From Candidatus Atabeyarchaeum deiterrae (GTDB taxonomy: Archaea; Asgardarchaeota; Atabeyarchaeia; Atabeyarchaeales; Atabeyarchaeaceae): a DNA stretch of 64,000 bases. The notes below the pieces were generated by a model, which had not been told where the DNA came from, did not search any database, and saw only the letters and a list, made by a program, of their open reading frames with translations. Position numbers and translations under genes: made by a program. Location: NCBI GenBank assembly GCA_037310415.1, contig CP147780.1, positions 448,001 through 512,000 on the forward strand. The letters run 5' to 3'. This document shows positions 12,076-24,268 of the stretch, piece by piece (position 1 is the first letter of the stretch; the number at the start of each line of letters is the position of its first letter).

Positions 12076-12111
12076 TTAATCTCCCAATGCAACTTGCGAA
12101 ACTCCTATTGA

Positions 12112-13609
<1,498 letters not shown>

Positions 13610-14534: not shown

Positions 14535-14552
14535 TTACGAGTAAGGTCTGAT

Positions 14553-17660
<3,108 letters not shown>

Positions 17661-17829
17661 AGGCCTGAAAGCCCTCGGTCTGGGTGAATTTAGATCTCCC
17701 ATTTATTGTTCGGCGGGTGGAATTCTGTGCGTGGTGATCTCCTCATTTCTCTTGGACTAGTCAATCCCATGTTTGCCCCCTTGTTGATGGAAATTCTTAT
17801 TTGACATTCCTCGTAAATGTATTCTTGGA

Positions 17830-18236
17830 GTTAGGACGTGGGAGCGCGGCTGCCGGTGCCTTTCTTTCTCTTTGAGGAAGCTAGGTGCTGAGGAAGGTCT
17901 CCCCTCCACCAGACTTCGGTGCAGCGAAAGCTGCGAGGCGAGAGCCTCGCTCCAGGATCAGAAACGACACGTCCACACGTGAAATGACTATGATGCGGTT
18001 GAGGCGATGCTTACAGTGAGCGTCTCCGAGCAGGAGCCAGGGTAACCTAGCTCAATAACCCGCTGAGGATCCTTGTGGGAGCGGTGAAACGGCCTGCCAC
18101 CGAGGAGAAAGCCCAAATAGGCTGTGGATGATGCGTCTGGCTGAACCAGCGGGTAGGGTGAGTAGCTGGATGCCGCAAAGGGTGTTTCGGCGACGAAACA
18201 TCTGGAACAAAAGGGGGCCTACTACCCACACCTGAC
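17830..18236 (+). ncRNA. rnpB: RNase P RNA
   Basis: GAGGAAGGTCTCCCC pairs with AACAAAAGGGGGCCTACT (P4); CAGAAAC and GGTGAAACGGC conserved regions; terminal P1 stem. Confidence 0.9.
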
Positions 18237-21571: not shown

Positions 21572-22529
21572 TTTTTGATTCCTCTCGGCTCTTTTCCAGT
21601 CTCTCCATGGCTGCTGCTACGATCAAGGGAAAAGCGATTGTGGCGTCTCCTATTACGTCAACCCACTCAGCTTCAGGTTTCACTTTGCCCCAAGACTGAG
21701 CTTCTTGAAGCGAAGCACCGCTTAGTCCGCCTGGCTCCGGTCTATCCATTGTGATTTGTATTGCGTAATCAAGTGCCTTACCTGTTAGCATAGCGGACTG
21801 AAGAATATAGTTCTTCGGTACGCCACCTCCCAGGAACACGGCACCGATTCTCTTTGATTCAAAATAAGTATCGATCATTTTCTGGAGATCTTTTCTCAAG
21901 TCTACTCTCAGGTCGTTCTGCTGAGAATAGATCCAAATGTGGAGTCCTAAAATCGAGTCGAATATTGCGGGACAGAATATGAGAGTTCGATTCCTTGCTG
22001 CTGTTCTCAGAATTGACTCATCGTCATCCAGCATAAGTCCGATCTCTCGCAGTAGTTCATAAGAGCCCAGTCCTTGCCTGCGCTTGTCCTGGTCTATGGA
22101 AGTGAAATACTCCTTCAACTTGCTCTCTAATTCCTCGAAAGCTTCATCCCTGACAAAAGCATCAAAAATCCGGTTTATTCTCATTTCTCTGAGCGCGGCG
22201 TCGCCAACTGAGGTAATATCTCTTTCATGTTTCCAACCGGAAGCTTCGACTAAGTCATGTGTAACGTTGGCGCCCGTGAGAACCAAGATGTCGACCATTC
22301 TATTCTCCACTAGATCCCTAATGACTTTTCTTAGCCCGCCGGGTACGAGAGCGCCAGCAACACCGACAGGCTTGAGGATTTCTTTGTCGGAGAGAATTCG
22401 TTCATAGATTTCTGCCCCCTTGCTTACTCGCCCAGCGCCAAATACCCCTGCCTTTCCCATCTCATCGACTAGTTCTCCGACACTCATGCCTGCGTGGATC
22501 CTCATTTGCTCAACGTATTTCCGCTCCAA
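21564..22529 (-). CDS. dys: Deoxyhypusine synthase
   Basis: TGAN..HD, GGGVPKN, GGLSGA..EA.SWGKV, DATI..P. Confidence 0.93.
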   Translation of the reverse strand: MERKYVEQMRIHAGMSVGELVDEMGKAGVFGAGRVSKGAEIYERILSDKEILKPVGVAGALVPGGLRKVIRDLVENRMVDILVLTGANVTHDLVEASGWKHERDITSVGDAALREMRINRIFDAFVRDEAFEELESKLKEYFTSIDQDKRRQGLGSYELLREIGLMLDDDESILRTAARNRTLIFCPAIFDSILGLHIWIYSQQNDLRVDLRKDLQKMIDTYFESKRIGAVFLGGGVPKNYILQSAMLTGKALDYAIQITMDRPEPGGLSGASLQEAQSWGKVKPEAEWVDVIGDATIAFPLIVAAAMERLEKSREESKIE

Positions 22530-22713
22530 GTCAATTCCACCGCCGAATAATGTCGACTTCAGGCACAGGAGATTGTTAACATAGCTTAATTGCTTGTGAG
22601 GTAGATATCAGTTTGGTCTCTCGGCAAATCTCTCCAGTAGATGAGTCTGAAACGAAATCACCTAAGGAAAGCCAGATTAGAAGTAATAAGATCGCTACCG
22701 GCTCGCATAAGGT

Positions 22714-22904
22714 TGGTAGCGGGGGATGGATTTGTCCTTCGTGGGAGTTGATCCCACGGATTTGAACCATCGATCTCAGGGTATCCCAGTGGGACATCTT
22801 ATGAGCCATCCGCAGGAGGATTTGGCTATCTCCTACTGCGGGATCTCCTGAGTGGGCCAACCTACCTCCTGATCCAGAAGTAAGGGTGCCTACCCTACCC
22901 CGCT
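22714..22904 (-). tRNA. Initiator tRNA-Met(CAT) with 4 BHB introns (22852-22889 at 15/16, 22808-22835 at 29/30, 22783-22799 at 37/38, 22732-22761 at 58/59)
   Basis: 191 nt minus 38+28+17+30 gives 78 nt with A1:U72 and GGG/CCC anticodon-stem pairs. Central helices are GGGT/GCCC, CCGC/GCGG, CTCA/TGGG and GTTC/GGAC. Confidence 0.92.
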
Positions 22905-23105
22905 ATTACGGGTGCGAATTATGTGATAGTTCTGAATGGTTACTCATATATTTTACTCTTTGGTTGCTGTCTCCTGTCAAAATAATCGTGTTCTCTACCT
23001 CTCAACCGGCGTCCAAGATTCATATTGCCAAAATCGGCTATGGCTTCCTTTTAGTCGAAAATAGCTGGCAGGGAATTGCAGAACTGGAAAATGATATCGT
23101 TGGAG

Positions 23106-23180
23106 TGGACCGGGTGGGATTTGAACCCACGACCTCCGGCTTGCAAAGCCGGCGCGGCTTCCAGCCTGCGCTACCGGCCC
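23106..23180 (-). tRNA. tRNA-Ala(TGC), intronless, CCA not encoded
   Basis: GGGCCGG...CCGGC-TT-TGC-AA-GCCGG...CCGGTCC-A; G3:U70. Confidence 0.95.
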
Positions 23181-23218
23181 ACCATAGGAGCCGTTCACTA
23201 GCGAAGATAAGGATTGAG

Positions 23219-23330
23219 GGCCGGGAGCGGGATTTGAACCCGCGTCAAGGGCTCCACAGGCCCCTAGGCTAACCACTCTTGAGACGCTACCCAGCTACTC
23301 ATCGATGGGGAGCGTTATCCCATCCCGGCC
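23219..23330 (-). tRNA. tRNA-His(GTG) with encoded G-1 and a 37-nt intron at 14/15 (23279-23315)
   Basis: GGGGC-CT-GTG-GA-GCCCT; BHB GGGA/TCTC with inner CGCT/AGCG. Confidence 0.9.
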
Positions 23331-23463
23331 ACTTGAACGATCTTTCATTGTAGACGAGGATTAAAGATTTTGTCACTTTTCTTATAAACTCTTTGACCTG
23401 CAACTGCGTAACGATGTCTGACCAAGGATCATCGCCAACGAAAAATAGGAGAGGCTAACCAAG

Positions 23464-23766
23464 TCATTTGAAAAGTCCTTGTAGAACTATTGCAGATGTG
23501 AATAGGGCCCGGTTGCCTCCTACATAATAGGCTATTCTCAGTGCTTCGACAATCTCTTCTTTGGTGGCCCCGACTTTCATGGCTCTCTGACCCAGTGCGG
23601 TGGCTCCTTGTGTTGCCCCATGCTCCGCATCTAATGCCATGGCTATTAGTAGCTTGACCCTTTGGGGTAGTACTCCTTCTGACAAAGCTGTACTTTGTAG
23701 ATGATCGAAGCATTCCATCACTTTCGGATCGAATTTCCTGTAGATATCCATAGGATTACCAAACAT
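23464..23766 (-). CDS. Carboxymuconolactone decarboxylase (CMD/AhpD-like) family protein
   Basis: L..RVKLLIAMAL...A...GATKEEI.EAL pattern; no CxxC. Confidence 0.85.
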   Translation of the reverse strand: MFGNPMDIYRKFDPKVMECFDHLQSTALSEGVLPQRVKLLIAMALDAEHGATQGATALGQRAMKVGATKEEIVEALRIAYYVGGNRALFTSAIVLQGLFK

Positions 23767-23923
23767 GATATCACCAATGGCACAGTATAGAGCCGCCTAA
23801 ATAGGATTTGGCTTGTCATGGAGCGCCTCTGGGAAATGGATAGTTCGCTCTCCTATTTGGTAGCTTACTTAGAAGAATGAGTCGGCAAGCTCATGCCGAA
23901 TAGTCTAAGAATGTTTGACCAAG

Positions 23924-24268
23924 TGGTGCGGGGGGTGGGGTTCGAACCCACGCAGGCCTACGCCGATAGGTTTCCTAGAAGATTGCCTAGAGGTCTTGCG
24001 CCTTCTGGAGTCCCCCATAGTTTGGAAGAGTCTTTTCTGCCAGCCCCATTTCCAGTGGTATCGACCCTTACCATATCTCTCCCTCTGAGTTCGAGCAAGT
24101 GCTCACCAACGGCTGAGCCATGAGTGCCATCGTCCAATGTCACCGACGTCAAGGATTGCTTGACCAACTAGCGCATACGCTACCATTTTGTCTGAATAAG
24201 CAAGCTCTTTCATTCTGGGCAAAGTTCTCCTAAGCCTACCTCCTTTGACCAGGCTCGGACACCCCCGC
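23924..24268 (-). tRNA. tRNA-Leu(TAG) with a 257-nt intron at 37/38 (23972-24228)
   Basis: Exons GCGGGGG...GTAGG-CT-TAG-G and A-CCTAT...CCCCCGC-ACCA; BHB CTTA/TAGG with inner GAACTTTGCC/GGCAATCTTC. Confidence 0.9.

Follow-up and report, generated by a model that had tools for sequence, protein, structure and literature searches.

A real initiator tRNA-Met(CAU) gene (iMet) that is very probably functional and very probably in need of four splicing events was identified in the complete single-contig genome (2,756,679 bp, 2.76 Mb) of the wetland Asgard archaeon Atabeyarchaeia-2, as judged from its sequence and from that of its relatives. The gene occupies 191 nt on the minus strand at positions 22714..22904 of the window, i.e., the 64,000-nt stretch of DNA analyzed here (genome 448001-512000), corresponding to genome positions 470904..470714. 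With a probability of roughly 0.87, the locus represents a single functional iMet gene carrying four bulge-helix-bulge (BHB) introns, which would be excised by the tRNA-splicing endonuclease EndA, with the exons being joined by RtcB. The initial annotation had given exactly these coordinates while leaving the strand unstated, and had described five exons of 15, 16, 8, 21, and 18 nt with 113 of 191 nt as intron, a structure that was reproduced in full.

Anatomy and identity of the interrupted gene

All exons and introns lie on the minus strand, on which the gene reads AGCGGGG...CCCCGCUACCA. Exon 1 (22890..22904, 15 nt) covers tRNA positions 1-15, comprising the 5' strands of the acceptor stem and the D-stem together with A14 and G15, and is followed by intron 1 (22852..22889, 38 nt), which is located in the D-loop at 15/16 and has a central helix between G10-U13 (GGGU) and GCCC as well as an internal hairpin. 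Exon 2 (22836..22851, 16 nt; positions 16-29) contains what remains of the D-loop and the 3' strand of the D-stem, along with G26 and C27-G29, and is separated from exon 3 by intron 2 (22808..22835, 28 nt), located at 29/30 in the anticodon stem with a CCGC/GCGG central helix and a 5-bp inner helix (AGGAG/CUCCU). The CAU anticodon resides in exon 3 (22800..22807, 8 nt; G30-A37), after which intron 3 (22783..22799, 17 nt; central helix CUCA/UGGG) occupies the canonical position 37/38. Exon 4 (22762..22782, 21 nt) spans A38-A58, and intron 4 (22732..22761, 30 nt) interrupts the T-loop at 58/59, with a GUUC/GGAC central helix and a 7-bp inner hairpin past one mismatch. Exon 5 (22714..22731, 18 nt) supplies A59-A73 and the encoded 3' CCA (22714-22716, minus strand). 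The predicted exon junctions are GGGUAG|UCAGGAG (1-2), CGCAG|GGCUCAUA (2-3), CUCAUA|ACCCUG (3-4), and GGUUCAA|AUCCAUC (4-5), and the joined exons amount to 78 nt.

This 78-nt spliced product was recognized by ARAGORN as tRNA-Met(cat), with a standard cloverleaf and a 7-nt anticodon loop containing CAU. Archaeal initiators differ from elongators in having an A1:U72 pair together with three G:C pairs at 29-31:39-41. Both were present in the spliced product, i.e., the A1:U72 end pair (AGCGGGG...CCCCGCU) and G29-31:C39-41 within CAGGG/CCCUG, supporting the initiator identity proposed in the initial annotation. In addition, a spliced alignment against a compact iMet reference, using a routine that tolerates long insertions and ignores splicing motifs, arrived at these same four insertions, and every one of the 75 positions matched. 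In two compact homologues from other archaea (L053 and L054), the contiguous D-arm GGGGTAGTCAGGAGATCCCG was identical to the proposed exon 1-exon 2 junction, and inserts were missing at the equivalent junctions in iMet genes that are compact or carry fewer interruptions (L053, L054, L005, and L011). Two alternative placements of exon 2, ending at other CAG sites, were dropped by eye as they left no D-stem, and the placement reported here is the one chosen by the motif-free alignment.

The unspliced locus was invisible to ARAGORN, whether the raw window, the whole genome, or the gene alone was submitted, and an Rfam search at gathering thresholds returned no match at the iMet region. Group I and group II introns contain a ribozyme core of hundreds of nucleotides, and self-splicing introns of these groups were rejected given that the inserts measure just 17-38 nt and that no Rfam match occurs in the region. 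Moreover, the five exons are colinear within the 191 nt, an arrangement other than that of split or permuted tRNA genes. A TATA-like element (AAAATATATG, followed by AGTAAC) was found at 22945..22954 on the minus strand, ~41-50 nt upstream of where the mature tRNA starts. Five of the alleles described below retain this element, which may serve as the iMet promoter.

The iMet gene is the last member of a tRNA cluster on the same (minus) strand at 22714-24268, which, with positions per the published table, also comprises Leu-TAG (23924-24268, with a 257-nt insert), His-GTG (23219-23329), and Ala-TGC (23106-23180), all on the minus strand. Several interrupted tRNAs in this genome were mislabeled by ARAGORN, including Leu-TAG as Ser and the elongator Met as Leu. 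Elsewhere in the window, the plus strand carries the 16S rRNA (12111-13608), the 23S rRNA (14549-17663; a match of 3115 nt against a 2987-position model), and the RNase P RNA (17834-18233), the last lying just 170 nt downstream of the 23S rRNA, and no tRNA was detected in the 940-nt 16S-23S spacer. Among the 43 tRNAs published for Atabeyarchaeia-2, several isoacceptors that would be expected are missing, such as Asp-GTC, Cys-GCA, Ile-GAT, and Thr-CGT (PMC11291895). Further heavily interrupted tRNA genes probably are still unannotated in this genome.

Splicing motifs and their conservation among relatives

The central helix was taken as the pairing between the four exon bases that precede the 5' bulge and the four intron bases that precede the 3' bulge. 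In the window allele, 4/4 pairs were formed at all four iMet boundaries, in line with the four 4-bp central helices noted initially, and three of the four helices included one G.U pair. A 4/4 central helix is expected by chance at ~2% of random fixed boundaries in this genome, or at 0.5% when a flanking helix is required as well, and the chance of four such helices at four boundaries is ~1e-7. Flanking helices of at least 2 bp were found for the iMet introns, with introns 3 and 4 being marginal under a strict contiguous rule. Specifically, h' consists of 2 bp and then 3 bp in intron 1, of 5 bp in intron 2, and of 1 bp and then 7 bp across one mismatch in intron 4; intron 3 has a 2-bp outer helix and almost no inner helix before the removal of intron 2. 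With intron 2 gone, this outer helix would extend into the 5-bp anticodon stem, and G30 plays a double role as the last base of the 3' bulge of intron 2 and as a partner in the outer helix of intron 3. A fold with all four motifs forced was possible at -61.3 kcal/mol, i.e., 20 kcal/mol higher than the minimum-free-energy fold (-81.0 kcal/mol), which itself already includes the intron 1 motif. Any order of intron removal would be conjectural.

The survey of related genomes, as suggested in the initial annotation, yielded five further alleles, each with three or more iMet introns, from MAG LC30 (G002), SRVP18_Atabeyarchaeia-1 (G001, CP147779.1), and three JGI metagenome contigs (L011, L012, and L016). 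The six-allele comparison hence covers three genomes and three metagenome contigs from at least two genera; an Asgard MAG (L004/L029) with its 5' half masked with N was left out of the allele reading. Mature iMet was 99.2% identical over the six alleles, with one D-loop base differing, and the introns were 69-74% identical. The same four introns as in the window were present in L016 and G002, and one additional intron was present in G001 and L012. Anchored helix tables revealed two-sided compensatory changes in the inner helix of intron 2 (G-C, U-A, and A-U among alleles at one position) and in that of intron 4 (U-A/A-U/G-C at one position and C-G/U-A at another). In the Atabeyarchaeia-like allele L011 (7365-7527), introns 1-3 were present and intron 4 was precisely missing, leaving GGTTCAA|ATCCATCC contiguous. 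Compared with the other alleles, this is, at the level of sequence, a presence/absence polymorphism of the T-loop intron at the exact predicted junction. An iMet with three insertions (95, 15, and 32 nt) was also aligned by the motif-free routine in a Geothermarchaeales MAG (L024:1022-1239), its first insertion being located very close to the 5' end (~position 4).

Intron 1 has the weakest of the four motifs. The outer pair of its central helix is a G.A mismatch in five of the six alleles (3/4 pairs; 4/4 only in that of the window) and an outer exon helix is missing, so that the motif is a relaxed one, and its sequence drifts between alleles (62-88% identity). Its long internal hairpin was retained in 6/6 alleles. 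It is also the intron in which the present gene model departs from the published one. Supplementary Data 4 of Valentin-Alvarado et al. 2024 (PMC11291895) lists, for Atabeyarchaeia-2 (under the name 'SRVP_Atabeyarchaeota_2_curated.FINAL'), tRNA #39 as iMet CAT at 470904..470714, with an Infernal score of 56.5 and three introns by tRNAscan-SE and R2DT (470835-470808, 470799-470783, and 470761-470732). The coordinates, the iMet identity, and introns 2-4 agree with the gene model presented here, whereas the 38-nt D-loop intron (470889-470852) is unlisted.

The published count of three, based on tRNAscan-SE and R2DT curation, together with the relaxed intron 1 motif in 5/6 alleles and its lack of an outer helix, would fit a gene in which splicing is confined to the three published introns and the 38-nt D-loop insert either stays as an expansion or leaves by another route. 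This is unlikely on several grounds. Compact homologues lack the insert at exactly 15/16, and the insert keeps three to four central pairs plus the hairpin in all six alleles despite the low sequence identity noted above. Moreover, the 116-nt form with only the three published introns removed was not recognized as tRNA-Met by ARAGORN, and a retained insert would part A14/G15 from G18/G19. The omission also fits the known behavior of the finder, given that a preprint (Goswami et al. 2026, 10.64898/2026.10.13.758758) reports that, in three families (Atabeyarchaeaceae, Freyrarchaeaceae, and Jordiarchaeaceae), tRNAscan-SE systematically overlooks ~30% of the intervening sequences. Half of those overlooked lie in the D-arm, exactly the hidden kind to which intron 1 belongs.

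Single copy, splicing enzymes, and probable dependence of initiation

No second iMet gene, a matter the initial annotation had left to be checked, was found in the whole genome. A spliced-alignment scan of both strands of the 2,756,679 bp scored the iMet locus at 118.6 and the best unrelated match, another tRNA, at 55, and a regular-expression search of the genome brought up neither an initiator-type acceptor arm nor an anticodon arm free of interruption outside the iMet locus. The other CAT tRNA of the genome (792623-792753) is, once spliced, a G1:C72 elongator without the GGG/CCC run. The iMet gene is the only one in the complete Atabeyarchaeia-2 genome, and initiation should therefore depend on all four excisions, as the initial annotation had held.

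For the splicing machinery, two EndA paralogues, each with PF01974 and PF02778, and one RtcB were identified in the genome. The longer EndA, of 238 aa (L061:1474-2190, genome ~215530-216246, minus strand), has ~60 extra N-terminal residues and most closely resembles catalytic subunits from the crenarchaeal heterotetramers (3p1z_B, 3ajv_B, and 2zyz_B). The other paralogue has 198 aa (L062:1192-1788, genome ~625319-625915, plus strand). The two paralogues are consistent with a two-subunit (alpha-beta)2 enzyme, a type that tolerates relaxed motifs at non-canonical positions (PMC4033280). Two EndA paralogues are likewise present in most Asgard genomes, according to the preprint (10.64898/2026.10.13.758758).

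Under the four-intron model, a TATA-type promoter belonging to iMet itself would probably drive synthesis of a ~190-210-nt precursor, in which each insert (at 15/16, 29/30, 37/38, and 58/59) would pair locally with four upstream exon bases to form a bulge-helix-bulge. The endonuclease built from the two EndA paralogues would cut in both bulges, and RtcB would ligate the five exons into a tRNA of about 75-78 nt, encoded CCA included. With only this iMet gene available, all translation initiation would hang on the four excisions. Transcription, actual cleavage, and ligation are steps that we infer; a search for RNA runs covering window positions 22500-23400 returned none, and four metatranscriptome runs gave zero cover of the iMet gene, with a single 33-nt piece over the neighboring tRNA-Ala.

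The heavy interruption of the locus and its low published Infernal score (56.5) could also be expected of a decaying pseudogene, with initiation proceeding via another, unrecognized tRNA. Such a scenario is very improbable considering that, among six alleles drawn from two or more genera, the exons are near-invariant and the introns divergent, that the promoter-like element is conserved, and that the complete genome harbors no other iMet candidate. Exons of 8-21 nt can arise by chance, but a reader's construct from unrelated sequence is scarcely credible for a locus in which 75/75 positions match in order within 191 nt, a BHB motif occurs at 4/4 boundaries (~1e-7 by chance), and the architecture recurs in relatives.

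The functional four-intron iMet gene would be an essential single-copy gene needing four cut-and-join events, an indication of how heavily the tRNA-splicing enzymes are relied upon in this Asgard lineage. The gene also provides a concrete substrate for exploring the range of the Asgard endonuclease, notably with respect to the relaxed D-loop motif, and corrects the record in that the published model is one intron short.

An apparent five-intron homologue in Atabeyarchaeia-1 and comparison with known systems

An iMet gene of 213 nt was also located in the sister genome Atabeyarchaeia-1, at CP147779.1 ~463981..463769 on the minus strand beside tRNA-Ala(TGC), corresponding to L003:1449-1661 (minus strand) and L018:20-232. 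The published tRNA table of this genome contains 40 tRNAs and no iMet (PMC11291895); the absence of an initiator tRNA from the listing of this sister type genome reflects the failure of standard finders on such genes. The apparent introns measure 41, 21, 17, 28, and 28 nt, and introns 1-3 are placed as in Atabeyarchaeia-2. The T-loop intron lies at 59/60, one base beyond that of Atabeyarchaeia-2, with a UUCA/UGGG central helix flanked by an inner helix of 7 bp and a complete outer helix of 5 bp. The fifth intron (28 nt) is placed at 63/64, so that introns 4 and 5 are separated by a micro-exon of just 4 nt (UCCA). The central helix of the fifth intron has 3/4 pairs and takes the last two bases of intron 4, such that both motifs cannot coexist and removal would have to follow a constrained order. 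The L012 contig shows the Atabeyarchaeia-1 layout too, with compensatory changes in the helix of the fifth intron. A single 56-60-nt T-arm intron was rejected for Atabeyarchaeia-1, as it would delete the T-stem 3' strand, and other registers of introns 4 and 5 gave only 0-2 central pairs by hand check.

The fourth and fifth introns (in L003 and L012) share 75-82% identity. Each follows A and precedes UCC, the two sites being 4 nt apart. This likeness in the A^UCC context suggests that an intron may have been copied within one gene. On balance, we lean towards an Atabeyarchaeia-1 iMet with five introns, a UCCA micro-exon, overlapping motifs with a constrained order of removal, and a within-gene intron copy. 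A search of the four Atabeyarchaeia-2 iMet introns against their own genome (blastn-short) returned no paralogues, and hence gave no sign of between-gene intron copying in Atabeyarchaeia-2.

The general phenomenon has already been published for these genomes, and the gain here is thus incremental, refining known work. Introns occur in 92-95% of the tRNA genes in these genomes, with several introns in over half (PMC11291895). Four-intron tRNAs were reported in Atabeyarchaeia-2 for Trp-CCA (four by R2DT) and Lys-TTT (four by tRNAscan-SE), and in Freyarchaeia for Arg-TCT, Ile2-CAT, and Leu-GAG (PMC11291895). These share with iMet the lineage or sample set, short BHB introns, non-canonical positions, and the count of four, but they are elongators, whereas the gene described here is the single initiator. 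Up to five intervening sequences per tRNA gene in the three families named above are reported in the Goswami et al. 2026 preprint (10.64898/2026.10.13.758758), in the text of which the initiator tRNA is never mentioned. The census described there starts from tRNAscan-SE genes, and the unannotated Atabeyarchaeia-1 iMet may consequently fall outside it. Relative to the published tRNA tables (PMC11291895), the additions made here are the 38-nt intron 1 of tRNA #39 and the unannotated, apparently five-intron homologue in Atabeyarchaeia-1.

The initial annotation had cited three introns per tRNA as the classical upper figure from Thermoproteales, in agreement with the maximum stated for multiple-intron tRNA genes of that order (review PMC4033280), and had placed the iMet gene at or beyond the known extreme. 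The latter claim is outdated for this lineage in light of the four-intron tRNAs on record (PMC11291895), of the up to five intervening sequences in the preprint (10.64898/2026.10.13.758758), and of the five introns that the sister iMet appears to carry. The tRNA genes of Thermoproteales (Sugahara 2008; PMC4033280) likewise contain non-canonical BHB introns, often more than one to a gene, alongside an EndA of two subunits, and differ from the gene described here in their maximum of three introns and in belonging to the phylum Thermoproteota rather than to Asgard archaea. In summary, the intron count of the Atabeyarchaeia-2 iMet is above the classical maximum of three, yet below today's extreme; this kind of object and counts of four and five introns were already on record for the lineage, to which the present analysis adds one intron in a published gene model.
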